64,000 bases of DNA, taken from the NCBI GenBank assembly GCA_903919315.1, contig CAIXHP010000026.1, positions 10,428 to 74,427 on the forward strand. Direction: 5' to 3'. The position numbers and the translations under genes are program-made. Position 1 is the first letter of the stretch, and the number at the start of each line of letters is the position of its first letter. The DNA is from an uncultured Pseudomonadota bacterium (GTDB taxonomy: Bacteria > Pseudomonadota > Alphaproteobacteria > UBA9219). The notes beneath the pieces are model-generated. The model saw only the letters and a program-made list of their open reading frames with translations, made no database searches and was not told the DNA's origin. This document shows positions 7,358-51,858 of the stretch, piece by piece.

Positions 7358-7359
7358 GC

Positions 7360-19410: not shown

Positions 19411-20048
19411 TGCGGGACGGATTTGTCATTTTACCGATAGCCTGTGAGGAAACCGTGTCAATCACACTCCGAACCGCCAAGATTTTTTCCCTGTGCCTCT
19501 TGGCCTTGGGCCTGAGCACACTTTTTCCGAACAACGCCAAAGCGGATCGTCTTTTTCCACCCTTTAAAGGCGACACACTCAACGTCTGCGACGGTGATGA
19601 CCAGCTATTGATCTGGGATAAAGACGCGGGGAAAAACAAATGTACGGATACATTTGCGATCGTCAATACGGCTGCCTGTCCTCCTAATCAATATATGGTC
19701 CATATCGTCGGTGGCAATATCAGCTGCGTTGGCTACGCCCCAGCCGGAATTTCTTGTCCTGACGGACAATTCATGACTGGGATCGATGCCTCCGGAGCAC
19801 CTATCTGCGCCGCCAAAGCCCCTAACCTATGCCCTCCGCCGCCAAGAGCTTGCACAGGCGGCTGGGCTCAAAGTGGCCACTCAGGAACTGGCGAGCATTG
19901 GTGTAATGATTATACTGGTGATGGTGTCTGCACGTCATATCCTGGCCACTGTAGAGGAACCTGCTCAACAAGAGGGCCAACAGCTTCGGCCTGCAGTGGT
20001 CGCGTCTGTCGAGATACCTATATCTGCACCGGCACGACAACGCCCTAG
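19410..20048 (+). CDS. Secreted cysteine-rich protein, paralog C (core plus Cys/Gly-rich extension). Alternative GTG start at 19455 gives a canonical signal peptide.
   Basis: ATG overlaps the B stop (TGATG). AKA followed by DRLFPP. Same core motifs (LLIWD, CPPNQYMVHIV, CPDGQFMTGID). Confidence 0.55.
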   Translation: MRDGFVILPIACEETVSITLRTAKIFSLCLLALGLSTLFPNNAKADRLFPPFKGDTLNVCDGDDQLLIWDKDAGKNKCTDTFAIVNTAACPPNQYMVHIVGGNISCVGYAPAGISCPDGQFMTGIDASGAPICAAKAPNLCPPPPRACTGGWAQSGHSGTGEHWCNDYTGDGVCTSYPGHCRGTCSTRGPTASACSGRVCRDTYICTGTTTP

Positions 20049-20148: not shown

Positions 20149-20225
20149 CGGAGAGTAGCTCAGCCCGGTAGAGCACTGCCTTCGGGAGGCAGGGGCCGGA
20201 GGTTCGAATCCTCTCTCTCCGACCA
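20149..20225 (+). tRNA. tRNA-Pro (anticodon CGG)
   Basis: 77-nt cloverleaf: acceptor CGGAGAG/CTCTCCG, D-arm AGCTCAGCCCGGTAGAGC, anticodon stem CTGCC/GGCAG with loop TTCGGGA, T-arm GGTTCGAATCC, 3' CCA encoded. Confidence 0.85.
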
Positions 20226-20285: not shown

Positions 20286-21848
20286 CTAGGTCACCACCTC
20301 GGCCGCTCCGCCCTCGCGCTGGACCACGAGCCAGTTCTGGCGGCCGGTCTGGAAGTTGATGCTGCCGGTCAACCCCAATGCCTCCAGCGTGTGAACGTAC
20401 AATCCGCGTAGTTCTTCGGGCAAGCCATGGGGAAGGGGGCGCTCGCTCCGCACGACAAGTTCAAGCTGCCGTGGCCGTGCCAGCCCGTCCATTTGCATCG
20501 CCCCGAGGCGCGACATGTTCATGCTGATAAGAAAGCGCGTTTGCTTCGCAAGCTCAGCTCCGGCCAAGCTCGACTGCCTCTGCTGGCCGTCCCGATGCAC
20601 ATAGAGCCTGAGCATCTGGAACTGCCCTTGATCGATGATCGGAAAGGGGAAAGCCCGCCACTCCCCGACCGTGGTGTCGCGGGCTGGGGCCGAGGCCTGT
20701 TGCAGTTCGTCGATCAGCTTGGCGATAAGCTCGCGTTTTCCGTCTTTGTCCAGCTTGCCCGTCGCCTCTTCGCCCAGCCATCCCGTCACGCCGCTCTGCT
20801 GCAAGACGTTGAACAGAAACAGCATGGAACCGGGCAGGGCAGCGTTGGCTTGCGGAACCCGCGTGTGCAAGACCTGCTGCGCCAGTGCCGGATCAAGCTG
20901 CTGCAACGCCGCCATCAATTTTTGCAAAGAGGGAGCTGAATCGTCTGGGTTTATCGGCCATGCAATCGCCGCTGCTTCCTCCGACGGAAGCACCGATAAC
21001 AGGAGTCTGCTTCCCGTTGGCAAGTCCGCGCTCTGGCGCACGAAGAGCGATGTGCCCTCGACACGCAGCAAAAGCCCGCCATGACCGCCTTTGCCGACCA
21101 CGGTGGCAACAAACTGGTCGGCTGTTTCGGGAACCGGCGCTAACGCATTCGGCGCGACGACGCTATCAACCCGTAGCCTCAGCTCCGCGCCAAAGCTTTG
21201 AAGATTCACATTGGCAGGGCCGGTCTTCACCACCGCCCCCGTCGTCACGGATGGCGTTTGAGCAACCGCCGTCGATGAGATGGCTTTCGGCAAAGCCTGC
21301 GTTGCGGGAGCCGTACCCCCTGAAGAGGTCGTCGCCAACTTGGTTGATGGCTCCGGCACCCGCCCGAAATCCCCCGGCAAGACAACGGCTGAAAGCGTCA
21401 GTCCGGGCGCGATAGGCGGCCCTGATGGCTTGAGTCCCTGAGCGAAGGCGACTAACGGCGCTGCGGAACTTCCGCCTGCAAACGGCTCCATGACCGAAGG
21501 CGGCACCAGCAAGAATGCCTGTGTCGGAGGACTTCCGGGTTGGAGGATGAGGCCGACGGGACGTTGGCTCTGTGCCATCGGCGCAAGAAACGAAGCCAGA
21601 GGATTGGTCGTGCCGTTCGGCAGAGGCGAAGCGCCGAGAGTCAAATTTCCCGCCGCCGTTTGCATCGTAAAAACGCCGTCATCCAACAGCGCCACAATCG
21701 GGCCGTTAAGTTGGATCGCGCGAGCCAATTGCTCAAGCTTGCTCGGCAGGGACTGGATCGCAACGCTTAACAACGCCACTTCGTCCGGCACAGCGTTCGT
21801 TAACAAGGCCGTCGCAACGGTGGCATTCAGAGGGGGGAGATCGACCAT
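20286..21848 (-). CDS. Putative flagellar hook-length control protein (FliK-like). Pro/Ala/Thr-rich with a FliK-like C-terminal domain.
   Basis: Last gene of the flagellar operon. C-terminal region ...MSRLGAMQMDGLARPRQLELVV..ERPLPHGLPEELRGLYVHTLEALGLTG fits the FliK C-terminal pattern. Low-complexity N-terminal two-thirds. Confidence 0.4.
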   Translation of the reverse strand: MVDLPPLNATVATALLTNAVPDEVALLSVAIQSLPSKLEQLARAIQLNGPIVALLDDGVFTMQTAAGNLTLGASPLPNGTTNPLASFLAPMAQSQRPVGLILQPGSPPTQAFLLVPPSVMEPFAGGSSAAPLVAFAQGLKPSGPPIAPGLTLSAVVLPGDFGRVPEPSTKLATTSSGGTAPATQALPKAISSTAVAQTPSVTTGAVVKTGPANVNLQSFGAELRLRVDSVVAPNALAPVPETADQFVATVVGKGGHGGLLLRVEGTSLFVRQSADLPTGSRLLLSVLPSEEAAAIAWPINPDDSAPSLQKLMAALQQLDPALAQQVLHTRVPQANAALPGSMLFLFNVLQQSGVTGWLGEEATGKLDKDGKRELIAKLIDELQQASAPARDTTVGEWRAFPFPIIDQGQFQMLRLYVHRDGQQRQSSLAGAELAKQTRFLISMNMSRLGAMQMDGLARPRQLELVVRSERPLPHGLPEELRGLYVHTLEALGLTGSINFQTGRQNWLVVQREGGAAEVVT

Positions 21849-21866
21849 CGCCAGCCCCCGCGCCGG

Positions 21867-22685
21867 TCAGCGGTTGAGCAACTGTCCGGCGATAATCTGA
21901 CCGGCGATAAGAGTGACATCGCTGGCCGCTTCACAGTTCGGCGAACGCGTCAAAAGCGGTGTCTGCGCCCGAATAGCGTCGCGCACCTTGAGGTCGCGGC
22001 GAACGATTCCCGCCAACGGCGGCGTGTAGCGCAGGAAGGTTTCCGCCGCCTTGCGGATCGTGTCGTAGGTCTTCTGCCCTTCGTTGGTGGTGTTGGCCAT
22101 ATTGACCACCACGCGCAGATCGGCATGAGGATTGGCCGCTCGCGCCAGTTTGATGAAGGCATAAGCGTCCGTGAGCGATGTCGGCTCGTCTGTAACCAAA
22201 ACATAAGTCGTGGCGGCTGGCCCCGCCATTTGCCGCGTGGCGCGATCCACGCCCGCGCCCAAGTCAATCGCCGCTAGATCATAGTTTTGCGCCAAACCGA
22301 CAAGCGCTTGCCGCAAGTCGGCGACTTTTTGCGTCGCCAGCGTGGCAAGGCTGCCCGACCCTGAACGTCCCGCGAGAATGTCAAACCCGCCTTCAGGATA
22401 GGGCGTTACGGCTTCGGGCAAGCCGATTTCGCCGTCCATGACATGGGCCAAGTCCTTTTCCGGCGTTAGCCCCAGTTGAATATCGACGTTCGCCAGCCCC
22501 AAATCGCCATCGAACAACAACACCCGCTTGCCGCGCTTCGCCAAGGCGTGACAGAGAGTAACGGCAAACCAAGTCTTGCCCACGCCTCCCTTGCCGCTGG
22601 CAATCGCGATCATGTTCGGGCAATGGAGCGCCGCGACGGGCGAAAAACTGCGATCAGTCTTGAGCGGGACGGGATCGGTCATCAT
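21867..22685 (-). CDS. flhG: Flagellar number/placement MinD-like ATPase (FlhG/FleN/MotR)
   Basis: Deviant Walker A IAIASGKGGVGKT. Immediately downstream of flhF with a 4-nt overlap. Confidence 0.8.
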   Translation of the reverse strand: MMTDPVPLKTDRSFSPVAALHCPNMIAIASGKGGVGKTWFAVTLCHALAKRGKRVLLFDGDLGLANVDIQLGLTPEKDLAHVMDGEIGLPEAVTPYPEGGFDILAGRSGSGSLATLATQKVADLRQALVGLAQNYDLAAIDLGAGVDRATRQMAGPAATTYVLVTDEPTSLTDAYAFIKLARAANPHADLRVVVNMANTTNEGQKTYDTIRKAAETFLRYTPPLAGIVRRDLKVRDAIRAQTPLLTRSPNCEAASDVTLIAGQIIAGQLLNR

Positions 22686-23668
22686 GGAACTCCTGTTGCA
22701 TTCTTGGCGACGCGCGCCGTCGCTTGGGCTTCCTGCGCCAGAACCAAACGCGCGAGGGCAATGGGGTTCAAAGGCTGCGGCGCTTCGGTCACTTTGCTGG
22801 TCACGCTGAAATTCGCGAGCGGCATCTTGGTTTCAAACGCCAGCCTCATCAAGCCGCCCAAACGGCGCGTCATGTCGAGACGTGTCATCAAAAGGCGCGA
22901 AGCGCCCATCGCGCGAAACGCCTGAGCCATGTCGATGGCTTCGCTGGAGTCCATGTCGGCGGGAAGAACAAGAACGGTATCGCCCGCCGCCGCCGCGATC
23001 ATCGGCTGGAGCTGCGCTCGGTCGATTTCGCAAAAGGGATTGCGTCCCGCCGTGTCGATCAGCGCCAGACTGTCGGGCTGAATCCCAATGGCCTCGCGCA
23101 AAGCATGCGCGTCTTCGATTTCCATAAGCTTTAACTTCAGCAGCCGCGTAAAGGCCGCCAATTGCTCCATGCCGCCCGCGCGCTCTGTGTCCGTGCTGAT
23201 GACCATCACGGCTTTTTTGTTAAGCGTCGCCTTGGTGGCGAATTTGGCGGTGCAGAGAGTCTTTCCGGCTCCCGGCGGGCCGACAAAGAGCAACGGCTTG
23301 GCCGATTTGTCTTCGACAATAGGCTGGAACTTGAAATGCGCGTCAAAGGCCGCGCCGAGGGCCAGAACCGGATCGTCGTTCGTGAACTGCGTCGCCGCTG
23401 CCAGCAACCGCTCGGCCAACGCGTTTGAAACCTGATGCCGCAGCAAGGCGCTGGCGATAATCTCGATAACTTCGGAGCCGGGCGCGACGACTGGCTCCGG
23501 CGCATCGTCCTCCATGGGCGGCGGCGTATCGTCAATGGCCGCCGTGACGCGAATACCCCCCATGTCGTCGTCGCGCGTGGCCACGATAATGGCGTTGTCG
23601 CCCAAAGCCTCGCGCACGAGTCGCATCGCGTCGGTGAGGGTGGCTCCATGAAAGGATTTCAACCGCAT
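22682..23668 (-). CDS. flhF: Flagellar biosynthesis SRP-type GTPase FlhF
   Basis: GPPGAGKTLCTAKFA (G1), DTAGR (G3), follows flhA. Confidence 0.85.
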   Translation of the reverse strand: MRLKSFHGATLTDAMRLVREALGDNAIIVATRDDDMGGIRVTAAIDDTPPPMEDDAPEPVVAPGSEVIEIIASALLRHQVSNALAERLLAAATQFTNDDPVLALGAAFDAHFKFQPIVEDKSAKPLLFVGPPGAGKTLCTAKFATKATLNKKAVMVISTDTERAGGMEQLAAFTRLLKLKLMEIEDAHALREAIGIQPDSLALIDTAGRNPFCEIDRAQLQPMIAAAAGDTVLVLPADMDSSEAIDMAQAFRAMGASRLLMTRLDMTRRLGGLMRLAFETKMPLANFSVTSKVTEAPQPLNPIALARLVLAQEAQATARVAKNATGVP

Positions 23669-23669
23669 G

Positions 23670-25778
23670 TCAAATCTGCCCTAACGTCTTGATCTTCGCC
23701 TTTGGATAAATCTCGTTCTGCGACAACACGGTGGTCGTGGGGCGGAAACGCTCGACAATCGACCGCACATAGGGGCGAATGCCGGGGCTGGTCAACAGCA
23801 CCGGGGACTCGCCCGCCGCCGCCAGACGGTCATAGGTCTGGCGCACCGCATTGATGAACTGCTGCAACTTGCTCGGCAGCATCGCGAGGCGCTTTTCGTC
23901 GCCGTCGCCCGTAAGGGATTCCGCGAAAGCCTGTTCCCACTCCGCCGACAAGGTGAGGAGGGGGATATAGCCCATATCATTGGTGTGCGCGTCGGAAATT
24001 TGACGCGCGAGGCGGGCGCGCACATGTTCCGAAATCGCCGAAAGATTGCGCGTGATGCTGGTCGCTTCGGCGATGCCCTCCAAAATGGCGGGAAGGTCGC
24101 GCACAGAAACGCGCTCGGCGAGAAGATTCTGCAAAATCCGCTGCAAGCCGCTGAGCGTGATCTGGCTCGGCACGACATCGGCGACAAGGCGTTGCTGGTC
24201 TTTGTTGATCTCGTCCAGAAGCTTTTGCGTCTCGGCGTAGGAGAGCAGCTCGGACATATTGTCCTTGATCAGTTCGGTCAGATGCGTGGTGATGACGGTG
24301 GGCGGATCGACGACGGTATAGCCTTTGAACAACGCTTCTTCGCGATACGTCGAGTCCACCCACATCGCAGGCAGTCCAAAAGTCGGCTCAACCGTCGTTT
24401 CGCCGGGCAGGGCGATGTTATGACCGCGCGGATCCATCACCAACAACATGCCGGGCCGCAATTCGCCCCGTCCGGCTTCGATTTCCTTGACGCGGATGAC
24501 ATAGGTGTTGGGCGGAAGCTGCAAGTTGTCCTGTATCCGCACGGCGGGCATAATGAACCCCATGTCACCCGCCAACTGGCGGCGCAAGCCCTTGATCTGG
24601 TCGGTCAGACGTTGCCCCGCCTCGCTGTTGATCAGTCCGAGCAAGGCGTAGCCAAGTTCCAGCCGGATCAGGTCGATATAAAGCGCGCGTCCGATAGGCT
24701 CCTCGGCGGCAGGCGCGGGTTTCGTCAGGGCGGTTTCAGCCGCGACCTTGGCTTCCGCGCGGCCACGCTGCGATTGCATGACGCTGTAAGCGCCAAACCC
24801 GGCAATGCCGCCCAATGCGGCAAAGGGCACAAAGGGCATGCCCGGTATGAGCGCCAAAGTCATAAGCATGGCGGAGGTTAGGCCCAACGCGCTGGGATAA
24901 CCGCTCAACTGCGTGAACAAGGCTTTGTCGGTCGAACCGGCCACGCCCGCCTTTGACACCAACAGACCGGAGGCGACCGAGACGAGCAGGGCGGGAATCT
25001 GCGTTACCAGCCCGTCGCCGACGGTCAACCGCACATAGGATTCCGCCGCCTGCAGAACTTCCATATCGTGGCGGAAAGCGCCGATTGTGATGCCGACGAC
25101 GATGTTGATCGCGGTAATGACCAGTCCGGCGATAGCGTCGCCACGCACGAACTTGGCCGCGCCGTCCATGGAGCCGAAAAAGTTGCTCTCGTCCTCCAGT
25201 TCCTTGCGGCGGCGACGCGCTTCGTTTTCGTCGATCAGGCCGGACGACATATCCGCGTCGATTGCCATCTGCTTGCCGGGCATGGCATCCAAGGTGAAAC
25301 GCGCCGCGACTTCGGCGATACGCCCTGAACCTTTGGTGATCACGACGAAATTGACGAGGGTGAGGATGGCGAAAACCGTCACGCCGATGATGAAGTCGCC
25401 GCCCATCACCATCTCGGCAAAGGCGCGCACGACTTGCCCCGCCGCCTCTTCGCCTTCATGCCCGCGCGTCAGGATGAGGCGCGTCGTGCTGAGATTCATC
25501 GCCAGCCGTATCATGGTGGTGATGAGAAGAACCGTCGGAAACGAGCTAAAGTCCAGCGGCTTGGCGATAAACAGAACGGTCATCAGAATGACGACCGAAA
25601 AAGTGATGGAGATCGCCAGCCCGAAATCCACCAACAACGGCGGAATTGGCACGACCAACACGGTCAAGATGACCATCAAACCAAGCGCAAGCCAAATCTC
25701 GCCGCGCCGGAACAGGCTGTTCAGCCCATCCATGCCGCCGGACGACGCATCGACCGCCGCTGTGGTTTGATCCGTCAT
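23670..25778 (-). CDS. flhA: Flagellar export apparatus protein FlhA
   Basis: 702 aa. N-terminal TM region with the FHIPEP motif. Large cytoplasmic C-domain. Confidence 0.95.
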   Translation of the reverse strand: MTDQTTAAVDASSGGMDGLNSLFRRGEIWLALGLMVILTVLVVPIPPLLVDFGLAISITFSVVILMTVLFIAKPLDFSSFPTVLLITTMIRLAMNLSTTRLILTRGHEGEEAAGQVVRAFAEMVMGGDFIIGVTVFAILTLVNFVVITKGSGRIAEVAARFTLDAMPGKQMAIDADMSSGLIDENEARRRRKELEDESNFFGSMDGAAKFVRGDAIAGLVITAINIVVGITIGAFRHDMEVLQAAESYVRLTVGDGLVTQIPALLVSVASGLLVSKAGVAGSTDKALFTQLSGYPSALGLTSAMLMTLALIPGMPFVPFAALGGIAGFGAYSVMQSQRGRAEAKVAAETALTKPAPAAEEPIGRALYIDLIRLELGYALLGLINSEAGQRLTDQIKGLRRQLAGDMGFIMPAVRIQDNLQLPPNTYVIRVKEIEAGRGELRPGMLLVMDPRGHNIALPGETTVEPTFGLPAMWVDSTYREEALFKGYTVVDPPTVITTHLTELIKDNMSELLSYAETQKLLDEINKDQQRLVADVVPSQITLSGLQRILQNLLAERVSVRDLPAILEGIAEATSITRNLSAISEHVRARLARQISDAHTNDMGYIPLLTLSAEWEQAFAESLTGDGDEKRLAMLPSKLQQFINAVRQTYDRLAAAGESPVLLTSPGIRPYVRSIVERFRPTTTVLSQNEIYPKAKIKTLGQI

Positions 25779-25796
25779 GAGCTGTAGCCGCGCATA

Positions 25797-27188
25797 TTAC
25801 GACACCGCTCGTTCCGCTTCGCCGGAAGGCGGCACGGGAACGCCGGACTCGCTGTAGAGTTTGAGTTTGTTGCGCAAGGTGCGGATCGATATGCCGAGAA
25901 TATTTGCGGCGTGCGTGCGGTTGCCGAGGCAGTGTTGCAGCGTGTCGATAATCAGATCGCGCTCGACATCGGCCACCGTGCGCCCAACCAAACCACCTAC
26001 GACTCCGACGTGCTGTTCCGACATCGAGGAACGTCCCGCAGCCGCTTGCGTCGCCATAGCAACGGGGGACGAAGCTTCGGGGACGAGTCCCTGACCCGAC
26101 AACATGACGGCCTCGGCCTCGATCTGGTTGCTTCGCGCCATGAGGACGGCGCGGTGCATCGTATTCTCTAACTCTCGCACGTTGCCGCGCCAGTGATGCG
26201 ATTGGAGCAGCCCCAAAGTCGCCGGAGCCAAGGGACGATCCGGCAAGCCATTGGCCGCCGCATATTTTCGCGCAAAATGCTCGGCCAACGGCACAATGTC
26301 CGCCAGACGATCCCGCAAGGGCGGCAAGTGAAGGCTGACGACATTGAGGCGGTAATAAAGGTCTTCGCGAAAACGCTTGGCTCGCACTTCGGCTTCCAGA
26401 TCGCGGTTCGATGTCGCCAGCAAACGGATGTCCACCTTGATCGGAGTCGTGCCGCCGACGCGGTCAATCTCGCGCTCCTGAATGGCGCGCAGCAACTTGG
26501 CCTGAAGGCGCAAATCCATCTCGCTGATTTCATCGAGCAGCAACGTGCCGCCGTTCGCTTCCTCAAACTTGCCGACACGCCGCGCGACCGCGCCGGTAAA
26601 AGCGCCCTTTTCATGTCCAAAGAGTTCGGATTCCAACAAATTATCGGGGATCGCGGCGCAGTTCAGGGAAACGAAATTGGCGTTGGCGCGGCGGCTCTTG
26701 CGATGAATGTAGTGCGCCATCACTTCCTTGCCGGTGCCGGACTCGCCGGTGATAAGGATCGAAGCGTCGCTGCCCGCGATCCGTTCGGCGATTTGCATGA
26801 CAGGCTGCATGGACGGATCGCGCGCGATAAACGTCGCGTCTTCCTCGGCCACGGCCTGCAGAACGGCGGCGATAAGATCGGCATCAGGCGGCAGGGGCAC
26901 ATATTCCTTGGCCCCCGAACGAATGGCGCGAACCGCCGCGCCTGCATCTGTGCCGATGCCGCAAGCCACGACAGGAACGATAATCCGTTCGTTCTTCAAG
27001 CTCTCGATCAGCTGTGCAATATCCATCACCACGTCGCACATGACGAGATCGGCACCCTGTCCGTTCCGCAAAGCGTTCAACGCGCCCTCGACACTGCCGA
27101 TATGCGACACCTTTGCGCCGCGTTGCGTCGCTATACGCCCAGCGGTCGCGATATGTCCTTCCATATGTCCGACGATCAAAAGTCTCAT
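25797..27188 (-). CDS. flbD: Sigma-54-dependent flagellar transcriptional activator (FlbD-like) with an atypical receiver domain
   Basis: AAA+ sigma-54 interaction domain ([29 protein letters not shown]). C-terminal Fis-type HTH. The receiver domain lacks the usual acidic DD pocket (LIVGHMEG). Confidence 0.85.
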
Positions 27189-27268
27189 GAGCTGTTCCTC
27201 GCTTGTCTGTCATTCGGAGGAGGGGCATTGGGCGTTTGAATAAGCGCCATGATGCCTCCCTCCGGCGT

Positions 27269-27592
27269 CTAGTTCCGCTCCGTCTTGATGATTTCCGTCA
27301 TCGTAATCCCTAGCCGATCCTCCACGACGACGACTTCGCCGCGCGCGACGAGGCGATTGTTGACGTAGATGTCGATGGCTTCGCCGACCTTGCGGTCGAG
27401 TTCGATGACCGCGCCGCGACCGAGTTTCAGCAGGCTGCTCACCTGCATCGTCGCCTTGCCCAGCACGGCGGAAACCTCGACGGGAATGCCGTACACGGCT
27501 TCCAGATCAGTGATACTGGCGACAGCGCCGTCTTTCGGCTTTTCGCCGTTGCTGCTTTCCAGTTCGGAAAGGGTAAGGCTTTCATCGCTCAT
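27269..27592 (-). CDS. fliN: Flagellar motor switch protein FliN
   Basis: 107 aa. SpoA/FliN domain (IPVEVSAVLGK..M.V..LL.L..G.VIELD). Confidence 0.85.
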   Translation of the reverse strand: MSDESLTLSELESSNGEKPKDGAVASITDLEAVYGIPVEVSAVLGKATMQVSSLLKLGRGAVIELDRKVGEAIDIYVNNRLVARGEVVVVEDRLGITMTEIIKTERN

Positions 27593-28296
27593 AACGTTTC
27601 TCCTGATGGTGCGTTCGTCATAGATGGATCGGTGTTGGGCGAAGCTGGCAGGCTACCCGCCTGCGCCTCCTCAACGATGCGGTTGATGTCCTGCCACAGT
27701 TTTTCAGAGTCGCGCTCAATGCCGCCGTCCGCCCATTCGATACGGCAGTCGGCCGCGCCGAGATCCGGCTCGCCCAACACCACGACCTTGCCCGCATAAG
27801 CCTGACGCGCCGTAATGTCGGCAATCTTGGCGCTGATCGCGTCGAACTGCGCCTCGCCGACGCGAATGACCAGACGCGGCTCGCGCCCGATTTCGGTCAA
27901 TACCTGTGCGATAACGGCCTGAATTTCGTCGCAGCCATAGCGGGCGGCATAGGCGGGCATGATCTTGCGAGCGACGGCCACGGCCACGCATTGAAGATGT
28001 CCCATTTGTTCGCGCCACTGTTGCGCGGCCGCTTCGTTCAGCTCATTCAGCTTTTGCTCGACGCGCCCCAACAGCGTGTTCATCTGCTGGCGTTGCGTTT
28101 CCTCGGACGCTTTTTGCCCGGCGGCATAGCCGGATTCATAGGCCTGTTCGCGCACGGTTTCCAATTGCTGCTCGGTATAAGTCGGGGCAGGCGGCTTGTC
28201 GCCCTCCACTACGCCCAGCGCAAGGCCATCGTCGAACGAACGATCAAACAAATATTTTCGCATTGGCATCGCGTCAGTAGACAAGCTCATCCTCAT
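27589..28296 (-). CDS. fliH: Flagellar assembly protein FliH-like (FlbE-position gene)
   Basis: Gene between fliG and fliN. Coiled-coil Glu/Gln-rich N-terminus and a FliH-like C-terminus ([12 protein letters not shown]). Overlaps both neighbours. Confidence 0.6.
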
Positions 28297-29296
28297 TTTC
28301 TTTCGTAATCATAATTTCGCCCTTGGCGGCAAGTTCCTTGGCGACGGCGACGATGCTGCTCTGCGCTTCGTCCACGTCGCGCAGGCGCGTCGGGCCGAGC
28401 GCGGCGATGTCTTCGCGCAACAGCTTGCCCGCGCGTTCCGACATGTTGGAGAAGAACAGATCCTTGATCGCGTCCGAAGCGCCTTTGAGCGCGATTGGCA
28501 ATTTGGCCTTGTCGGCGGAGCGCAAAATGGTCTGGATCGCCGAACCGTCGAGCTTGCCCAAATCTTCGAAGGTGAACATCAGGCTCTTGATCTTTTCGGC
28601 GGAGTCGCGGCTGCGCTCTTCCAGCGCCGCGAGGAATTTGCTTTCGCTGGCGCGGTCGAGGTTGTTAAAGATTTCGGCCATCGCCTCGTGCGGATCGCGC
28701 CGGTTGGTGCGGGCAAGGTTGCTCATGAATTCGTTGCGCAGCGTCCGCTCAATGTCGTCGAGCACGTCTTTTTGCACCGACTCCATCCGCAGCATGCGCG
28801 TCACGACCTCCATTGCAAAGCTCTCCGGCAACTGCGACAAGACCTTGGCGGCATGATCCGGCTTGATCTTTGACACCACGACCGCGACGGTCTGGGGGTA
28901 TTCGTTCTTAAGAAAGTTGGCCAGAACGGCTTCGTTGACGTTGGCGAGCTTGTCCCACATCGTGCGGCCCGCCGGACCGCGAATGTCTTCCATGATGCTG
29001 TCGACGCGCGACTTGTCGAGCACTTTGGACAGCAACCGCTCGGTGGATTCCAGCGACCCCACCATCGCGCCGGTCGAAGACATCTGCTCCACGAATTCGA
29101 GACAGAGTTTCTCCACGAGCGTCGAGCTGACGTTGCCGACGTTGGCCATCACTTGCGAAAGTTCTTTAATCTCGTCGTCGTTCATGTGCGCGAAAATGCG
29201 CGCCGCGTTTTCCTCGCCGAGCGACAAGATAAACACAGCCGCGCGCTCCGGCCCGGAAAGGCTCCGTATGTCTTCACGAATGCGGACACCGGCCAT
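28274..29296 (-). CDS. fliG: Flagellar motor switch protein FliG
   Basis: 340 aa. Typical FliG N/M/C domain organisation ([11 protein letters not shown]...). Confidence 0.9.
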
Positions 29297-31335: not shown

Positions 31336-32844
31336 ATGCCAGAGGGTTTCGTTTCCTCAATGAGTTTATGCGAAAGGGTTTTTGCTATGGCGAATTGGTT
31401 TAGCAAATTCATTGGCAGCAGGTTAGTGACCAGAGTCGGTATTCCCGATATAGACGAACACGAACTAATGGCAACGCCGAGTCCGGACTCACAATACAGG
31501 CAGACCTTCGCAGTAGAATCTATGGGAACATCTGACGCGAGTATAGTGCCCCCACGCAATGCCTTGAGGCTGCTAGCGACGGAGCAAGCAGCACGCGTCG
31601 AAACAGATCAGCCGGGACATATTGGAACTAGACAGGAAGGTGCCGATGTTACGGCGCCACCGAATGAACCCGAACCACTCGCCGCCAAGAAACCAGCCAA
31701 GATTTACAAGATGAGGCGACCTTGGCCTTTGGACTCAGGTGCCAACACGGCCCCAGACCCGCACTATACTAAGTTCCAGACCCCCACCGTTGATCGCCTT
31801 AGAGCCCACGGGAATCAAACAGCCCCTATCGACACGCCGGATTACGCGATCTACGAGACTCCTTTTTTCCTAAGGCAGCTCGGCGGCCTTATCACGCTTC
31901 CTCTATTTGCCGAGGGATTGGAAGCAAAGACAGTGGCTGGACAATCTGATATTTTACCGAGAACCATGAGTATCAGCAGACCCCAAACGGACGCCACAGA
32001 AACATATGATTGGCTCGACCTTCCTGAGTTTCTTGGAGCACATGCTTTCCCGCCAACACATAATCCGCAAGACATCCCTGCCTTTTTCCAAACACCCGCA
32101 GGGCCAACAGCCCAAGAGGAACCACCGCTCGCACCTTGGATCACACATTATACAAATGCTTTTGGTGCGCTCAGTCATGAACAGGTCGGGCCTGTCACAC
32201 ACTTCCATTTTTCGGATCGCACGCGCAGTACGGTCTCGCTCCATCGTGCCGCTGATCCGGCCCAATACCGCATCACCGCGACTCCGGGTCTGACGGATGG
32301 AATGGCCAGACTGATCGTTCTGGCGGGGCATAAAGAAATGGGCGGAATCCGCCTTGATACCGAGGCATCTCAGGACGACAAACTGAGACTGTATGTAGCC
32401 GCCCAAACGGTTCTTCTTGAGCGTATGCTTGATGATGTGAGATCAGGAAATCTGGCCACTACAAACCCAGAGTTGGTGGAAATCGTCGCAGGCCGCAGTC
32501 GGCCTCCGGTCGTTGTCTTCGAAGACGGCACAGCGCCACAGGGTGGCCTTTTCAGACCAGCGCCAGAAGTAGCTACTGCTGTTGACGCGCATATTGCCAG
32601 AACAAGACAAGAACTTCTTGCTGAGCTTCAAGCAGCCATAACTACGCCTACACAGACAGCTAATCAACCAGCGCAAGATAGCGGTCGTCTGGGGAAACCA
32701 CACAGAGCTAATCACTCTCTTCTGACCACACCGTCGCAACAGGGCAGTGCCTCGCCTCAAGGGACGGTTAGGAAAAGACGAAGCAACAGGTCTCATGCGA
32801 GTGCGCCCACCACTAGGATGCCATCACCAGGCTCCGCCATCTAA
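31336..32844 (+). CDS. Hypothetical protein (502 aa, or about 485 aa from MANWF). No recognisable domain. Lower GC than the surroundings.
   Basis: Long ORF divergent from fliF, Pro/Thr/Gln-rich, no signal peptide. Composition drop over 31100-33000. Confidence 0.5.
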   Translation: MPEGFVSSMSLCERVFAMANWFSKFIGSRLVTRVGIPDIDEHELMATPSPDSQYRQTFAVESMGTSDASIVPPRNALRLLATEQAARVETDQPGHIGTRQEGADVTAPPNEPEPLAAKKPAKIYKMRRPWPLDSGANTAPDPHYTKFQTPTVDRLRAHGNQTAPIDTPDYAIYETPFFLRQLGGLITLPLFAEGLEAKTVAGQSDILPRTMSISRPQTDATETYDWLDLPEFLGAHAFPPTHNPQDIPAFFQTPAGPTAQEEPPLAPWITHYTNAFGALSHEQVGPVTHFHFSDRTRSTVSLHRAADPAQYRITATPGLTDGMARLIVLAGHKEMGGIRLDTEASQDDKLRLYVAAQTVLLERMLDDVRSGNLATTNPELVEIVAGRSRPPVVVFEDGTAPQGGLFRPAPEVATAVDAHIARTRQELLAELQAAITTPTQTANQPAQDSGRLGKPHRANHSLLTTPSQQGSASPQGTVRKRRSNRSHASAPTTRMPSPGSAI

Positions 32845-34626: not shown

Positions 34627-35802
34627 TCAAGAGGAGAAAGGCCGTCCGTCAATCCAAGCATGTCGGCATGATAAATCGAAATTCAAGATTGTAACGTCGC
34701 CTGTATAGCCGGGCAGCAGCTTGCCCAATCGGTCGCTCACACCCAAAAAGGCCGCCGGATAGGCGGAAGCCATCCGCAATGCCTCGTCCGGCTCGATTCC
34801 GACCTGTTGCACGCAATGTCGCACCGCCTCGGCCAAGATCAGACAAGCTCCCGCCAGCGTCCCCGCAGCATTGACGCAACAGCCCCCCTCGACGTGGATC
34901 AAATCGCCGTTCAGGCGAAAAGACCGAGGGTCATCCGTCGCCGCTGGCGGCATCGCATCACTCACCAGAAACAGCTTGCCGGATGGCTTGGCGCGACTAG
35001 CAAGCCGGATCATCGTGTCGTCGACATGAACCCCATCGGCAATAATCCCGCACCAACTGTCGCGGTCATCGAGCGCAACGCCTGCCGGGCCGGGAGCGCG
35101 CGCGGCCATGCCGCCCATGGCGTTGAATAAATGCGTAAATCCCGTTGCTCCCGCCTGCAACGCCGCCCGAACCTGCTCCGGCGAAGCCGCCGTGTGGCCT
35201 AAGGCGACAAGAGCGCCCTGTTGCCTCAGCTTAACAATAATCTCCGCCGCGACAACGTCGGGCGCAAGCGTAACAAGGAAAACTTCGTCCGGCTCGGCGC
35301 GATAAAGCAGCAAGTCTTCTTGCGTGAGGCCGCGCAGATAGTCCGCCTTATGCACACCGCGCCGCGCCTCGGAAAGATGAGGCCCCTCCAGATGAACGCC
35401 AAAGATATTGCTGCAAACCTTCCGCGCCGCGCGAGCCGCCGCCACGGCCTTTTGCGTAACTTCGGGCGTATCGGTGATGCAAGTGAGCAACAACCGCGTT
35501 GTGCCATAGGCCGCATGCGCCCGCGCAATCGCCACCGCGCCCTCGGCGGTTGGCTGGTCGTTGAACAGGACGTTCCCGCCGCCGTTGACCTGACAATCGA
35601 TAAAGCCGGGAGCCAAAATCGCCTCTGGGCAGGCGTAAACCTCGGCCTCCGCCGGAACCGCCGCCTGCGCCACGATATCGAGCACCCGCCCGTCCTTGAG
35701 CAACAAGGCGTGATTCTCGACAAAGGCTTCGCCCGTGAAAATAACGCCTTGGGTGAGGGCGGCGAGGGGGCTATCGGACATTTTGGAGCCTGATTTTGTC
35801 AT
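34627..35802 (-). CDS. nagA: N-acetylglucosamine-6-phosphate deacetylase
   Basis: Amidohydrolase fold. GFIDCQVNGGGNVLFND. HLEGP, HLFNAM. Confidence 0.85.
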   Translation of the reverse strand: MTKSGSKMSDSPLAALTQGVIFTGEAFVENHALLLKDGRVLDIVAQAAVPAEAEVYACPEAILAPGFIDCQVNGGGNVLFNDQPTAEGAVAIARAHAAYGTTRLLLTCITDTPEVTQKAVAAARAARKVCSNIFGVHLEGPHLSEARRGVHKADYLRGLTQEDLLLYRAEPDEVFLVTLAPDVVAAEIIVKLRQQGALVALGHTAASPEQVRAALQAGATGFTHLFNAMGGMAARAPGPAGVALDDRDSWCGIIADGVHVDDTMIRLASRAKPSGKLFLVSDAMPPAATDDPRSFRLNGDLIHVEGGCCVNAAGTLAGACLILAEAVRHCVQQVGIEPDEALRMASAYPAAFLGVSDRLGKLLPGYTGDVTILNFDLSCRHAWIDGRPFSS

Positions 35803-35890
35803 AATTGATGTGCTAAGCTTGCGCGAGGGCTTGCTCTTCTCTAAGACTCTGGCTCTGCCCTTTTCAAACTGGCAAACGCGGGATGAGCTT

Positions 35891-36544
35891 ATGACTGAAC
35901 ACAGCCTGTTGCAAGAAATCGAAGAAGATCTTCAGCGCCAGAAGTTTGAGGCGCTGTGGAAGCGTTTCGGAACCTACATCATCGGCGGCGCTCTTCTGGT
36001 CGTTTTGGTCACGGCGGCGTACAGCAGCTGGAAGTCCTATCGCATCGAAAAGCGGCAAGAGCTGACGGCGGCGATCCTCGACATCACGACCGGCAAGGAA
36101 ACCGACAAAGCCAAGCAAATCGCCGCGCTGGAAAGCTTCGCCAAGAACGAGGCCTCGACCGATCAGGCCGTTCTGGCTCGCTTCCACGCCGCCGCCATCG
36201 CGACCAAAGACGGCAAATCCGATCAAGCGTTGGCCCTGTACGAAGATCTCGCCGCCGATACGCAGCTTGAACCTCTCTTTCATGATCTGGCCATCGTGCT
36301 GGCGGTGCAATCGCAGTTGGATAAAGGCGATCCGTCCGTTCTGACGACGCGGCTGGAACCCCTGCTTGCCGAAAGCCCATGGCGGGTTACCGCTAAAGAC
36401 TACAGCGCTCATCTGGCGCTGAAAGTCGGTGATAGAGCCAAGGCCAAACAACTGTTCACCGATGTGACGCAGGACGACCGCGCCTCGCCCTCTCAAAAGC
36501 AACGCGCGAACGACGTGCTGCGCTGGCTGAACGAAGGTTCGTGA
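35891..36544 (+). CDS. YfgM-like membrane-anchored TPR protein (ancillary SecYEG/BAM-associated)
   Basis: N-terminal EE..LQRQKFEALWKRFGTYIIGGALLVV signature, single TM, TPR-like C-terminus. Conserved position upstream of bamB-der. Confidence 0.6.
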   Translation: MTEHSLLQEIEEDLQRQKFEALWKRFGTYIIGGALLVVLVTAAYSSWKSYRIEKRQELTAAILDITTGKETDKAKQIAALESFAKNEASTDQAVLARFHAAAIATKDGKSDQALALYEDLAADTQLEPLFHDLAIVLAVQSQLDKGDPSVLTTRLEPLLAESPWRVTAKDYSAHLALKVGDRAKAKQLFTDVTQDDRASPSQKQRANDVLRWLNEGS

Positions 36545-37869
36545 TGTTGCGCTCCCTCCTGCTTCTTGCGCTTTTGGCCACGCTACCGGCCTGCCACACG
36601 CTCTTTGGCGACGACTCGGCCACGGAGCCGGGTAAGGAGGAGGGCGAGCGCGTCGCGGTTCTCGATGTATCCAGAAAACCAACGGCGGACAAGGGTGTCA
36701 GCAGCGCCAATCTCAATCTGCCCCCGGCGGTCGCGAACAAAGACTGGCCGCAAGCGGGCGGCAACACCGAACACGCCATTTCCCACCCCGCTTTGGCGAC
36801 GCAACCGAATGAAGTTTGGAGCGCGGACATCGGTTATGGCTCGGACGGCGACTATAAATTGCTTGCCCGACCCGTGGTCAGCGGGGGGCGCGTTTTCACG
36901 CTCGACGCTCGCGGGCAGATCAGCGCGTTTAAAACCAAAGACGGCGACCGCGTCTGGCGCTTTGACACGACGCCCCACGACCGCGACGACGAAACGATGG
37001 GCGGCGGTCTGGGCGTTGACGGCAACGCGGTTTACGTCGCGACGGGCTATGGCGAAGTCCTCGCGCTCAAGACATCGGACGGCAGCGTGCTGTGGCGTAA
37101 AATGCTCGGCAAGCCGTTCCGATCCGCCCCGACCATCGCCGACGACCGCGTCTATGTCGTCAGCATCGACAACGAACTGAACGCGCTCGCAGCCCCCACC
37201 GGCGAAGTCTTGTGGCATCACAACGGCATAGCGGAAAGCGCGACGCTGATGGGCGCTTCCAGCCCGGCGGTGCAGGACGACAACGTGGTCGTGACCTACA
37301 GCTCCGGCGAGATTTTCAACCTGCGCGTGCAGAACGGACGTGTGAGCTGGACCGATGCCTTAGCCGTCCCGGCGCAGGTGGGGGCCTTGCCTGCCATCGC
37401 CGACATCCGTGGCCTGCCTGTCATCGATCGTGGTCGCGTGTTCGCGATCAGCCACAGCGGCCGCTTGGCCTCGATCGACCAACGCACCGGCGACCGCGCT
37501 TGGGAGGCCGACATCGGCGGCACCAACACGCCCATGGTTGCGGGCGATGCGGTTTTTGTCGTGGACAATGACAGCCAACTCATTGCCCTGACACGCCAAA
37601 CCGGACGTATCGTGTGGGTAACGCCCCTGCAACGTCTGCAAGACCCCACCCAATCGGATTCCACCCCCGTCTTTTGGTCTGGCCCCTTGCTGGCCGGGGG
37701 TCGCCTCTGGTTGGTTAATTCGCTGGGCCATTTAGCCGCCTATGCCCCCAATGACGGCAAACAGCTGTTCGACGAGCCATTGTCCGATGGCTTTTTCATC
37801 CCGCCGGTTGTAGCCAACAATGTGATGTATCTGGTGAGTGACAACGGGAAACTGATTGCCTTAAAGTAG
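36541..37869 (+). CDS. bamB: Outer-membrane protein assembly factor BamB (PQQ beta-propeller lipoprotein)
   Basis: Lipoprotein signal ATLPAC. Repeated PQQ-like WGS/YVAT motifs, 442 aa. ATGA overlap with the yfgM-like gene. Confidence 0.8.
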   Translation: MMLRSLLLLALLATLPACHTLFGDDSATEPGKEEGERVAVLDVSRKPTADKGVSSANLNLPPAVANKDWPQAGGNTEHAISHPALATQPNEVWSADIGYGSDGDYKLLARPVVSGGRVFTLDARGQISAFKTKDGDRVWRFDTTPHDRDDETMGGGLGVDGNAVYVATGYGEVLALKTSDGSVLWRKMLGKPFRSAPTIADDRVYVVSIDNELNALAAPTGEVLWHHNGIAESATLMGASSPAVQDDNVVVTYSSGEIFNLRVQNGRVSWTDALAVPAQVGALPAIADIRGLPVIDRGRVFAISHSGRLASIDQRTGDRAWEADIGGTNTPMVAGDAVFVVDNDSQLIALTRQTGRIVWVTPLQRLQDPTQSDSTPVFWSGPLLAGGRLWLVNSLGHLAAYAPNDGKQLFDEPLSDGFFIPPVVANNVMYLVSDNGKLIALK

Positions 37870-37913
37870 TTATAGGTCTAAACCACTATATATTACTTAG
37901 AGATTGAAAGAAC

Positions 37914-38453
37914 ATGTCGCACACATCCGAAGCTGAAAATCTTTTTTCTCATAAAGCCATTTTCCTGTATGTCATGACAACCTATTTTAGGCTGAATGCG
38001 AGAAACCATATAAAACAAGCGCGTGCGCTCTCACTCAGCTATCACGCCATCTCGTCGGCGAAAAAGCGAAAACGACAAGAAGGCAGCGGTCTCATTCAGT
38101 TCGCCAACGCATTAACCGTTGCCGCCTCTACACTGGAAAACGGCAAGACTGATGTGTATCTGGGAAGATGCGTCAGACCAATATTACACACCGTTGAGCA
38201 AACTGATCCGGCAAATTTTCTAAATATCGATCCTAATTTGTTGAACGATGAAGTATTGGCTCGCAATCTGAAGCAATTTAGTCACGCCGTCAGAACCATA
38301 GTCGCTAAGCGCTCATTTGCCAGTTCTGCAAAAGCTATTCTAACCCGGACCAATGATCCATGGAGTTTGGAACCAATGGAACCGCGCTCATTGCCGAATA
38401 ATCCAATTAAACAAAATAGACGGCGTTGGAACTTCCGATTTGGAGGCAAATAA
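37914..38453 (+). CDS. Hypothetical protein (179 aa) in an AT-rich insertion between bamB and der
   Basis: ORF spans nearly the whole low-GC gap 37870-38540. Basic, no known motif. Confidence 0.4.
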   Translation: MSHTSEAENLFSHKAIFLYVMTTYFRLNARNHIKQARALSLSYHAISSAKKRKRQEGSGLIQFANALTVAASTLENGKTDVYLGRCVRPILHTVEQTDPANFLNIDPNLLNDEVLARNLKQFSHAVRTIVAKRSFASSAKAILTRTNDPWSLEPMEPRSLPNNPIKQNRRRWNFRFGGK

Positions 38454-38540
38454 GGGCTAGTTCGCCTAAGGGCCCTTATCATTTAAGCGCTTGCATGCCA
38501 TAAAGACGGGCATCACGGCATCCAAGAGGCTAAGTTTTTC

Positions 38541-40112: not shown

Positions 40113-40721
40113 CTAGTTCTTTCTGCGCTTATCAGGCGTCCCCACATTTGACAACGGAGCTTTTGGCGCGTTTTTTAAAATTTGTTCTATAGGAATTTTT
40201 CTAACAATCTCTAGAATCTCTCTTTCTTCTTCTGCTATCTTTGTGTCAACAAACTGAACCCATGTTTTTGCTAGATCAATAATTGATTCTATTTCCACAG
40301 TTGACAAACAAGCCACCCTCGTATGCTGGCACTCGATAGAGCTAATACCTTCTTGTTCAACTCGCTCAACCCAATATCTCGCTATTGGCTGACTTTCCTC
40401 ATATGAATTGACCGAATGTGCAATATGTTTATCCCTTATCGCCATCAGACGTTCATGAAAAGCTATTTGTTGCGGAGCAAGCACCACATACCGTTGCTCA
40501 TATAAGGAGACTCTCCGTATACCACCACTAAAAACCCGTCCATACTTGATAATTGCCGCAATCATAAGTGGCTCAACATATGTGCCGAGATTATAGCCAT
40601 TTTTCTGCAGTTCACTCGCGTACTCTAGTACACACAACAAGTCGACACGAACGCTCGTGTAGTCCGAGAGACGCTGGGTATCATCTGTATTTTCTAAATG
40701 AACAAAAGCGTTTGTAGCCAT
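40113..40721 (-). CDS. Hypothetical protein (202 aa) in an AT-rich (about 40% GC) island between der and purF
   Basis: Long ORF in strongly AT-rich DNA. No recognisable domain. Glu/Ile-rich C-terminus. Confidence 0.45.
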   Translation of the reverse strand: MATNAFVHLENTDDTQRLSDYTSVRVDLLCVLEYASELQKNGYNLGTYVEPLMIAAIIKYGRVFSGGIRRVSLYEQRYVVLAPQQIAFHERLMAIRDKHIAHSVNSYEESQPIARYWVERVEQEGISSIECQHTRVACLSTVEIESIIDLAKTWVQFVDTKIAEEEREILEIVRKIPIEQILKNAPKAPLSNVGTPDKRRKN

Positions 40722-43157: not shown

Positions 43158-43365
43158 TTTCCTTACCGCCTGACCATGAACGGCCCCTGTCTAGCACAAA
43201 TCGCGGCAAAGTTAATGCTTTCCTGCAAACAAAAGGGCCGAAGATTCCGTTTTTTTGGTTCTGCCTGAAAAAGTTAACCGAAGCGGCATGAAACGGACAA
43301 AAACCTGTTTAAGCCGAAAGAAGTAAGTATGATGTCGCTATGTATCGTAATTTACGGGCTATTTT

Positions 43366-44130
43366 ATGAGTTTCGGATACACGGATCATTTAAACGTTAC
43401 GGCTGGCCTGCGGAAATTTTGCGGCCTTTGGGATATACCCTATCCCAAAGACGGCGAGTTCTTTGATGGCACAGAGAGCCAGATTTGCTTTACGCCCTTT
43501 GGCCTCGTCATACGGCTTGGGCTTGCGCCCCATCCCCTTGCCGATTATTACCATCCGCTTGTATTGCAACCACTGGCTGCTGCGAAACTGGGCGGCGGTC
43601 GCGTTCTGGAGATTCTGCCCTGGCTTGATACGAACGTGCAGGTGTGGGAGAGCCTTGATTTTGCCGACAGACTCATCCAAGCAACGGAGCCTGACTGGCA
43701 TTGGGCGCACGATCACGTTGCCCGGCGCAATCATGGTCGATTCTCCTGCGAGGATGAGGACATTATCGTCTTGATCGACCGTGGAATGCTGGCGGAAAAC
43801 CGCAGCGCAAAAACGGATCGCGGAACGCAAGGGAAGAACCATAGGTTTCGGCAACAAGCCGACATGTTTGCGACACGATCGCCGCAGGCAAAAGTTTTCA
43901 CCCCATTGAGCAAAGAACTGCGCAAAGCATGCCCCGACGGACTAATGCAGCCCCCGGATAAGCTAAAATTGCAAATATTCTTGGAAAAATGCATGCGAAT
44001 GGCCAACGGCAGCCAACGCGCGCCCCTGACAACGCAAATCCCCAACATCGTTCGGGCAGAGGCCCCTGACCTAAACCGCTATCTACGCGCCACCCGCCAT
44101 CAGTTCTTGCGCCAAGCGGCACCATGCTAG
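43366..44130 (+). CDS. Hypothetical protein (254 aa)
   Basis: ORF with an AT-rich upstream region. No recognisable motif. Trp/His-rich centre. Confidence 0.45.
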   Translation: MSFGYTDHLNVTAGLRKFCGLWDIPYPKDGEFFDGTESQICFTPFGLVIRLGLAPHPLADYYHPLVLQPLAAAKLGGGRVLEILPWLDTNVQVWESLDFADRLIQATEPDWHWAHDHVARRNHGRFSCEDEDIIVLIDRGMLAENRSAKTDRGTQGKNHRFRQQADMFATRSPQAKVFTPLSKELRKACPDGLMQPPDKLKLQIFLEKCMRMANGSQRAPLTTQIPNIVRAEAPDLNRYLRATRHQFLRQAAPC

Positions 44131-49097: not shown

Positions 49098-49576
49098 GAT
49101 ACGGACCCTTTCACAAGCTTCATTTGCAACCCAACACGGCCGGGAAAACGACTGGTTTTTCTCTGCGCTATGGCGTGGGCGCATTCGTGGCCACTGCGCT
49201 CGACGGACATACCCAAACCCAGCCTCCGGCACAACCTCAAGCCGTGTTTCGCGTCTATTTTTAGCCTTTAAAGCGTTTCGCTCCAGAGACGAATTTATCC
49301 CCCAATCCTGTGGATAACTCTGTTGGTAATCGTCGGAAAAGGGCCAAGACCCCGCCCGAAAGCTGGACTTTTAGCCTATTGCTTAAAATATAGGCAATTA
49401 TACTTAACCTATTGGAATAAGCTGATGATTTTGTGTTCACAACGTGGCAAGGCCGACGAAATCATCATTTTGCCGTATTTTAAGGCGGATTCGCGATTCC
49501 TGTGTACAAAGGACTCGCGTGACGACTGCATTCCAGCACAAGTCAAGACAGAAAATACATACTTACTAAAAAAAAG

Positions 49577-50323
49577 TTAAGGCAACCTGACCGAGGACGG
49601 AGAGAGCAAATGCGCCCCTCCGTCCACCGAAATGATGGCTCCGGTCATACCGACATTTTCCATGACAAAACGGACGGTTGACGCAACTACCTGAGGAGTC
49701 GTCTCAACCTTTAGTGGCGTGGCCGCGACCAGCGAGTCGAAGTGCGTCTGCGACTGGCGCGGGTGGATGAGGGTAGGGCCGGGGGCCACGGCGTTGACGC
49801 GCAGGCGGGGCGCATAGCGCAGCGCCATGGCGAGGGTTGCTTCTCGAAGAAGTTTTTTGCTTGCGGCATAGGCTCCGAACGTCTCTGGCGCGCTGGTGCC
49901 GTCCAAAAGATTGACGACAGCGCCAACGGTATCTTTCGGCAGTTGTTGAAACAAATCTTCGGTCAAGCGAATGGGCGCGAGGGCGTTGATTTGCCGATGG
50001 CGCAAATGGTCGGGGTCATGCGTATCGCGCTCGAACAAACACGCGTTGTTCACGAGCGCGGCGAGGGGGCCGCAGGTCTCGACGACGGAGGGGATCAACT
50101 TTGCCACCGCCTCCGGGTCGGCCAAATCGCACGACACCACCTGCGCCATGCGGCCGGTGGCGCGTATCTCTCGCGCTAGAGTCTCAGCCTCCACCCCCGA
50201 AGCATGGGCGTGGATCACGACATCCCAACCCGCCGCCGCCATGTCTAAGGCGATCACACGCCCCAGACGTTTGGCTCCGCCGGTGATGAGAACGCTCGCG
50301 CGGCGGGCGGTCATAGGGGCCAA
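49577..50323 (-). CDS. Short-chain dehydrogenase/reductase (SDR) family oxidoreductase (pteridine-reductase-like)
   Basis: VLITGGAKRLG Rossmann motif, NNA, YxxxK (YAASK). Confidence 0.8.
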   Translation of the reverse strand: MAPMTARRASVLITGGAKRLGRVIALDMAAAGWDVVIHAHASGVEAETLAREIRATGRMAQVVSCDLADPEAVAKLIPSVVETCGPLAALVNNACLFERDTHDPDHLRHRQINALAPIRLTEDLFQQLPKDTVGAVVNLLDGTSAPETFGAYAASKKLLREATLAMALRYAPRLRVNAVAPGPTLIHPRQSQTHFDSLVAATPLKVETTPQVVASTVRFVMENVGMTGAIISVDGGAHLLSPSSVRLP

Positions 50324-51189: not shown

Positions 51190-51858
51190 TTACTTAGGTG
51201 TGGCGACTCTGGCAAGCAACCCGGCCAAATACTCTCTACGAAACGGTATTAGCGTCTTCGCAGCAGCCACATTATTGGCTCTAGCTTCCTCTGAGGTATC
51301 AAAGCCTTTTTTAGCGGAAATATCTGCCACGGTTTTGTTACAGATGTCTTGAGCCGCTGTTGCATAAAAAACAGCATTGCCAAGATCCATGGGCAGATCA
51401 CCCTTATACGGCTGACAGCCCGTTGTGTCATAACTGTCCTTTTTAGCAGGAGGACTACACGTTAAGGCAACCGCGTCACGCTCTGGCGGAAACAACATGA
51501 CGAGGGTGTTCTTATCGTTTGTTGCGTCAACCGTTACGGCTACCAAAGTGCCGTCAATCTTTGACAGGCTAAGAGGACGGTCGAGCGCTTTGCCATATCC
51601 GGAAATGACATAAGAATAACCGTCAAGGCCAACATCGCGCCCTGCCGTACCCGTATCACTGGAATCGAGTTTGATGCCGCAATTGTGTTCAAAGGTACTT
51701 TTCTTGATGTATCCTGTGACTTTCAGAAAACTAGGATATTGATCCACCGACGCAACCTGAGCCCCCAGCTCCTGCTGTTCGCCCGCCTGCGCGCCCCCCC
51801 CTGCCACCAACGCAGCCGCAAAGGCAAAAGAAGACCACTTACCTGCACGATTGATCAT
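51190..51858 (-). CDS. Secreted hypothetical protein (222 aa, signal peptide, 4 Cys)
   Basis: N-terminal AFAAALVAGGGAQAGE signal-like region. Lower-GC gene body. Own terminator. Confidence 0.5.
   Translation of the reverse strand: MINRAGKWSSFAFAAALVAGGGAQAGEQQELGAQVASVDQYPSFLKVTGYIKKSTFEHNCGIKLDSSDTGTAGRDVGLDGYSYVISGYGKALDRPLSLSKIDGTLVAVTVDATNDKNTLVMLFPPERDAVALTCSPPAKKDSYDTTGCQPYKGDLPMDLGNAVFYATAAQDICNKTVADISAKKGFDTSEEARANNVAAAKTLIPFRREYLAGLLARVATPK

Follow-up and report, generated by a model that had tools for sequence, protein, structure and literature searches.

Introduction

The genes yfgM, bamB and der follow one another in Escherichia coli in the same order and orientation as in the alphaproteobacterial locus described here. 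The distance between the last two genes sets the two arrangements apart: the bamB-der gap of E. coli K-12 measures 117 bp, whereas in the present locus a gap of 671 bp contains an open reading frame (ORF) of 179 codons, termed orf179. The arrangement resembles a genomic islet, since in related bacteria the same junction carries different and mutually unrelated small genes, the nearest relatives lack the segment, and the GC content is low. In contrast to an islet, the spacer comes without an integrase, a tRNA gene or repeats, and its cargo has neither homologues nor a coding signature, while the cargo of the relatives does show such a signature.

The ORF itself may be compared with ORFans and proto-genes, with which it shares a lineage-restricted occurrence, a short and basic product, an intergenic-like composition and a likely transcription by read-through. 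Yet, 179 codons are unusually long for a typical proto-gene, and de novo genes have rarely been documented in bacteria. A second low-GC ORF, orf202, lies on the far side of der. AbiU2, with which it is compared here, is classed as a HEPN family tied to abortive infection (PMC3710099). The likeness to AbiU2 concerns orf202 only and comprises an Rx5H motif, a predicted helical bundle, weak matches to the Pfam family PF18734 and mobile or defence-related contexts (PMC3710099). Unlike the AbiU2 family, orf202 remains below the Pfam thresholds, is solitary and lacks a Sel1 or restriction-modification neighbour in the present locus.

Here we describe the bamB-der junction in a stretch of 64,000 nucleotides from an uncultured freshwater alphaproteobacterium, which is called “the window” throughout. 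We compare the junction with those of related bacteria, ask whether orf179 has the properties of a gene and weigh the possible origins of the intervening DNA.

The bamB-der spacer and its surroundings

The features of the locus are the following:

35735-36544, plus strand: yfgM-like gene, Pfam PF09976 (TPR_21, E 8e-10), first gene of the yfgM-bamB-der array
36541-37869, plus strand: bamB, Pfam PQQ_2/BamB (E 2e-71)
37870-38540, no strand: low-GC spacer of 671 bp, GC 0.44, not found in the closest relatives
37914-38453, plus strand: orf179, 179-aa orphan ORF that nearly fills the gap, on the same strand as bamB and der
38450-38479, plus strand: 9-bp hairpin across the orf179 stop codon
38541-40004, plus strand: der (engA), ribosome-assembly GTPase, Pfam two MMR_HSR1 domains and KH_dom-like
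40113-40721, minus strand: orf202, 202 aa, GC 0.42, convergent with der

Gene order and orientation of the yfgM-bamB-der cluster thus follow the conserved arrangement. The yfgM-like gene, for which gene callers place the start at 35891 and which is 217 aa long as called in L001, is homologous and syntenic in relatives. Both genes that border the spacer are intact. BamB ends in a regular C-terminus (...NGKLIALK*) and aligns over its full length, at 54-60% identity, with BamB of the relatives L003 and L004. Der begins with the canonical N-terminus MTFTVAIAGRPNVGKST, which recurs in its homologues; the start common to all close homologues is MTFT(V/L/I)AIAGRPNVGKST. The low-GC spacer of about 670 bp that the initial annotation placed between these two genes is real, and its GC content (0.44) contrasts with that of bamB (0.63) and der (0.62).

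The locus has been assembled independently from other sequencing runs, and an assembly artefact can therefore be dismissed. The Logan contig ERR4195031 (10,617 bp) is 100% identical to the locus, the Logan contig SRR8496330 contains a spacer that is 100% identical, and elsewhere in the window contigs of the NCBI assembly GCA_903945155.1 and of an ENA assembly match at 100% and 99.99%. Over about 31 kb these other assemblies show 0-1 differences to the window and thus are essentially identical.

The spacer harbours no Rfam family and no tRNA, and a terminator scan retrieved no plus-strand terminator-like site. The hairpin across the orf179 stop codon (AAUAAGGGC...GCCCUUAU) is followed by a weak T run only, was not retrieved by the terminator scan and, with a z-score of 0.06, is no stabler than shuffled sequence; as a terminator it is not convincing. 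Upstream of der nothing could be aligned across relatives that might represent a conserved promoter or leader.

The bamB-der junction in related bacteria

The closest Der protein among one-genome-per-species representatives of GTDB belongs to an uncultured Rhodospirillaceae metagenome-assembled genome and shares 69% identity, while the closest one in a large protein collection reaches 78%. Given these distances, the host is a poorly sampled alphaproteobacterium. A free-living, aquatic way of life is suggested by the sample labels and by flagellar export genes that the window contains.

A survey of the gap covered 11 relatives in which bamB lies upstream of der. The two genes are tightly joined (at most 14 bp) in four of them, and in the other seven they are separated by 284-2153 bp, the contents of which are mutually unrelated. 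The gaps include:

L011: -4 bp, no content
L034 (Der 78% identical, closest): 7 bp, no content
L008: 8 bp, no content
L006: 14 bp, no content
L030 (Der 78% identical, closest): 284 bp, without a called gene
L009: 412 bp, accounted for by an N-terminal extension of Der (Der at 5698-7410)
ERZ1426827 contig (Der 75% identical): about 578 bp, 193-aa protein without Pfam match
L007 (5267-6000): 734 bp, 187-aa minus-strand ORF without Pfam match
L003 (4875-6000): 1126 bp, 165-aa Ser/Thr-rich protein and 139-aa secreted-looking protein
L004 (3848-6000): 2153 bp, NAD-epimerase and 203-aa Ser/Thr-rich protein

None of the gaps in the relatives contains cargo resembling orf179. Compared to the nearest relatives L034 and L030, with gaps of 7 and 284 bp, the spacer of the window represents extra DNA. 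Accordingly, the initial view of yfgM, bamB and der as normally contiguous genes fails for this clade, in which less than half of the junctions surveyed are tight. The related notion of an interrupted synteny survives in part: there is extra DNA at a conserved junction, but the interruption is not unique and falls into a recurrent variable site. Within this group of alphaproteobacteria, the slot between bamB and der is variable and has been occupied repeatedly.

Some further features of the compared proteins are worth recording. The Ser/Thr-rich proteins of L003 (165 aa) and L004 (203 aa) are weakly similar to each other. The apparent N-terminal extension of the L009 Der protein is Lys/Arg-rich and comprises about 110 aa, and the Der homologues P0073, P0100, P0029 and P0041 carry long basic C-terminal tails.

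Similarity searches and predicted structure of orf179

The predicted product of orf179 is strongly basic (pI 10.5, with 27 Lys and Arg residues versus 13 Asp and Glu residues) and has an Arg-rich tail ending in ...KQNRRRWNFRFGGK. Extent, strand and basic tail of the ORF are therefore as first described, and the absence of a known motif was likewise borne out: searches of Pfam, NCBIfam, PADLOC and PHROGs returned no family match (in Pfam none at E <= 1), and no MNT or Sel1 signature was found by Pfam. A search of 5.8e9 clusters, representing about 15 billion proteins, retrieved only the protein itself, and phmmer, run exhaustively over 1.84e9 representatives, yielded no accepted match beyond self. 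The single match obtained by phmmer in the PDB has an E value of 0.71, and no paralogues are present within the window.

Eight giant proteins were matched by phmmer with E values down to 5e-12. The four of them that were scanned against Pfam are all adhesins with SdrD B-like repeats. These repeats match orf179 only at HTVEQTDPANFLNIDPN and its flanks, a short TVxETDP...PN motif of 20-48 residues, and contribute 24-29 bits each. A kinship with SdrD_B (PF17210) was rejected as a chance similarity amplified by repetition: the E value sums over up to 15 repeats, orf179 itself has no Pfam match to SdrD_B, and its predicted structure is helical rather than beta.

The AlphaFold2 model calculated from the single sequence, in which residues 6-145 are all-helical and the tail is disordered, has a pLDDT of 46, which makes it unusable for a fold search. 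A test for helical amphipathicity was failed by known real proteins too, and hence is not discriminating.

We also considered whether orf179 might descend from a former N-terminal extension of Der. The ORF lies in the frame of der, but two in-frame stop codons lie between them. Moreover, long Der homologues are extended in the linker or at the C-terminus, and all of them start with MTFT.AIAGRPNVGKST. This candidate was therefore discarded.

Does orf179 look like a coding sequence?

Two properties of the frame exceed what simple chance usually gives or what random frames show. The orf179 frame has no internal stop codon, whereas the other five frames of the segment contain 6-14 stops each. When the spacer was shuffled 40,000 times with its dinucleotide content preserved, runs of 181 or more codons without a stop had a probability of p = 0.0015 if both strands were considered and of p = 0.0010 on the plus strand. 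The ATG is located two codons past an upstream in-frame stop codon (TGA), where the open run begins. The amino-acid composition was scored by comparing Swiss-Prot frequencies with those of random translation. On this scale orf179 reaches -1.6 bits per 100 aa, as compared to -10.1 +/- 4.1 for random open frames matched in base composition (p 0.015). The conserved genes of the window score 11.0 +/- 5.9, and orf202 scores 2.4.

The base composition by codon position gives a different picture. Coding periodicity is absent from orf179: the chi2 value is 7.6 (p 0.27), the period-3 signal-to-noise ratio is 1.2, and the median chi2 of random open frames with an equal composition is 7.9. By comparison, 54 real-gene segments of 180 codons with a GC content of 0.38-0.52 never fall below 11.5 (median 36.9), and every small orphan tested reaches at least 20 chi2 units per 180 codons, among them the orphans found between bamB and der in relatives and the homologues of orf202. 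Furthermore, no Shine-Dalgarno motif (GGAG, GAGG, AGGA or AAGG) is present within 25 nt upstream of the orf179 start, a motif that roughly half of the window's remaining genes possess.

Pure chance is disfavoured by the length of the frame, an established gene by its composition. On these measurements orf179 may be an atypical orphan, a young proto-gene or a chance ORF.

Foreign or native DNA

The low GC content of the spacer has to be judged against the remainder of the genome. Many intergenic spacers of this organism have a GC content of 0.43-0.48, the pooled value for intergenic DNA is 0.51, and the whole window averages 0.58. With 44-45% GC the bamB-der spacer equals the organism's own intergenic DNA, and thus, a foreign origin is possible, yet not required. 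The spacer contains no integrase or transposase gene and is not flanked by direct or inverted repeats, and the only tRNA gene of the window is found at 20149 (tRNA-Pro, 20149-20225). Searches of phage and plasmid collections with the spacer DNA gave no match, and neither did searches of phage, plasmid, viral-contig and metagenome-contig data with the orf179 protein. We infer that the segment is not a mobile element.

The proposal that der is flanked on both sides by foreign-looking DNA can consequently be maintained for one side: the region of orf202 is accessory, while the side of orf179 is ambiguous, as its GC content is like that of the genome's own spacers.

Long non-coding intervals seem to be common in this genome, and several spacers of 519-873 bp without an ORF of at least 100 aa are found in the window (17681-18382, 49098-49970 and 15507-16025).

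orf202 on the other side of der

The second low-GC patch, located beyond der, was also confirmed. orf202 is a real gene, as judged by its coding periodicity (chi2 31), 106 homologues of about 205 aa from diverse metagenomes, invariant residues and the weak PF18734 matches within its family. The protein contains the motif R96-D-K-H-I-A-H102, of which R96 and H102 are invariant in 43 sequences, and the invariant pattern R96-x5-H102-S-V-N105 fits the Rx4-6H motif of HEPN proteins. The Pfam family PF18734 (HEPN_AbiU2) matches 17 of the 43 family members weakly and below the curated threshold (best E 0.0034), and does not match orf202 of the window itself. A confident structural model has a HEPN toxin as its best match, with generic helical bundles scoring similarly.

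The homologues of orf202 are solitary and adjoin phage integrases, DUF4238 genes or VapC-type genes. orf202 probably is a solitary Abi-type RNase gene, and the family of about 205 aa to which it belongs is an unannotated, widespread group resembling AbiU2-type HEPN proteins.

Other features of the window

Small orphan genes are scattered through the genome. Upstream of the tRNA-Pro gene, three ORFs of 129, 219 and 213 aa lie in a row on the plus strand (18383-20048); they have a GC content of about 0.54 and no Pfam match, directly precede the tRNA gene and may constitute an islet at this site. A 502-aa orphan ORF (31336-32844, plus strand, GC 0.54) belongs to no Pfam family and shows a clear periodicity (chi2 65). 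Small low-GC ORFs without Pfam match, yet with coding periodicity, are located at 63-422 and 2424-2786 on the plus strand and at 51190-51858 on the minus strand. Between cvpA and radA (43158-44130), a 254-aa plus-strand ORF without family match (43366-44130) competes with a publicly called 114-aa gene on the minus strand.

Paralogous SBP_bac_3 solute-binding genes with a GC content of 0.51-0.52 are present at 8716-9594, 56789-57640 and 57664-58563, all on the minus strand and two of them in tandem. A flagellar export cluster (20872-28651, minus strand) encodes a FliN-like protein, a sigma-54 activator, FlhA, FlhF and a ParA/MinD-like ATPase, which may be FlhG. Given this cluster, the organism probably is motile. 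Type IV secretion genes, on which a secreted effector with a basic C-terminal signal would depend, were not seen in the 64-kb window.

Origin of the spacer and of its ORF

The account that we favour, if only somewhat, is that orf179 is a strain- or species-restricted orphan or a young proto-gene, which is transcribed by read-through and resides in lineage-specific filler of a variable slot. The transcript of yfgM and bamB would read through the insert into der, so that the segment is transcribed passively; such read-through is suggested by the common strand, the lack of a plus-strand terminator and the essential der gene downstream. The insert would be tolerated because the expression of der stays uninterrupted. 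orf179 would then be either a young proto-gene or an orphan that evolves fast, and its product, if translated, would be a basic, mostly helical cytoplasmic protein of 20 kDa with a disordered Arg-rich tail and without a conserved cellular role. A bolder proposal, which we regard as unlikely, holds that orf179 is a de novo gene, i.e., that native, AT-rich DNA between the genes of a transcribed array gave rise to the frame, which is translated and has come under incipient selection. De novo birth would account for a long frame alongside an intergenic composition, the missing periodicity and the lack of homologues. The rather unlikely, albeit credible, explanation that no protein is made or selected at all would make orf179 a chance ORF in an ordinary or decayed non-coding spacer, noticed merely for its length. 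Its chi2 value and signal-to-noise ratio are exactly as in random open frames, the GC content is the same as in other spacers of the genome, and neither a homologue nor a Shine-Dalgarno motif nor a high pLDDT speaks for a protein; a basic pI, moreover, is what random AT-rich sequence typically yields on translation. Since six other spacers of at least 400 bp occur in 64 kb, a 1-in-1000 event is not absurd genome-wide. Against chance stand an open run of p about 0.001 in this particular spacer, an ATG at its very start and an amino-acid composition 2 SD above that of random open frames; moreover, an ORF of at least 100 aa is missing from all other long spacers of the window.

Acquisition of an AT-rich accessory gene from an unsampled donor (a phage, a plasmid or another bacterium), whose product might for instance bind nucleic acids via its Arg-rich tail, would be in keeping with the long open frame, with a GC drop of 18 points that has sharp borders at the bamB stop codon and just before der, with the missing segment in the nearest relatives and with the neighbouring orf202 islet, which is clearly acquired and of a defence type. 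We consider this origin distinctly unlikely, as about 15 billion proteins and the phage, plasmid and viral collections contain no homologue, orf179 lacks the coding periodicity that orf202 and every other orphan of acquired appearance display, neither an integrase nor repeats nor a tRNA accompany it, and a native intergenic composition explains the GC content as well. Still another arrangement would unite orf179 and orf202 in a two-gene module around der, e.g., an antitoxin or regulator together with a HEPN toxin. Both ORFs are low in GC and flank der, orf202 resembles a HEPN (AbiU2-like) toxin, and such proteins are often partnered (PMC3710099). The module, which had been put forward as a possibility for the 179-aa and 202-aa proteins, is highly improbable and was rejected, however: the 106 homologues of orf202 are single genes in varied contexts and never adjoin an orf179-like gene, orf179 has no homologue whatsoever and carries neither an MNT nor a Sel1 signature, and the two ORFs lie on opposite strands with an essential gene between them.

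Implications

Under the favoured account, the locus is a further example of an orphan ORF that is confined to its strain and sits in a variable intergenic slot. Since cargo recurs between bamB and der in this poorly sampled clade, breaks of synteny at this place should not be over-read. The family of orf202 could join the catalogues of defence genes. A long open frame without coding signature calls for caution in annotation, and at the same time makes orf179 a candidate for the study of proto-genes, provided that expression data exist. If the de novo reading were true, orf179 would represent a rare case of bacterial gene birth caught early.
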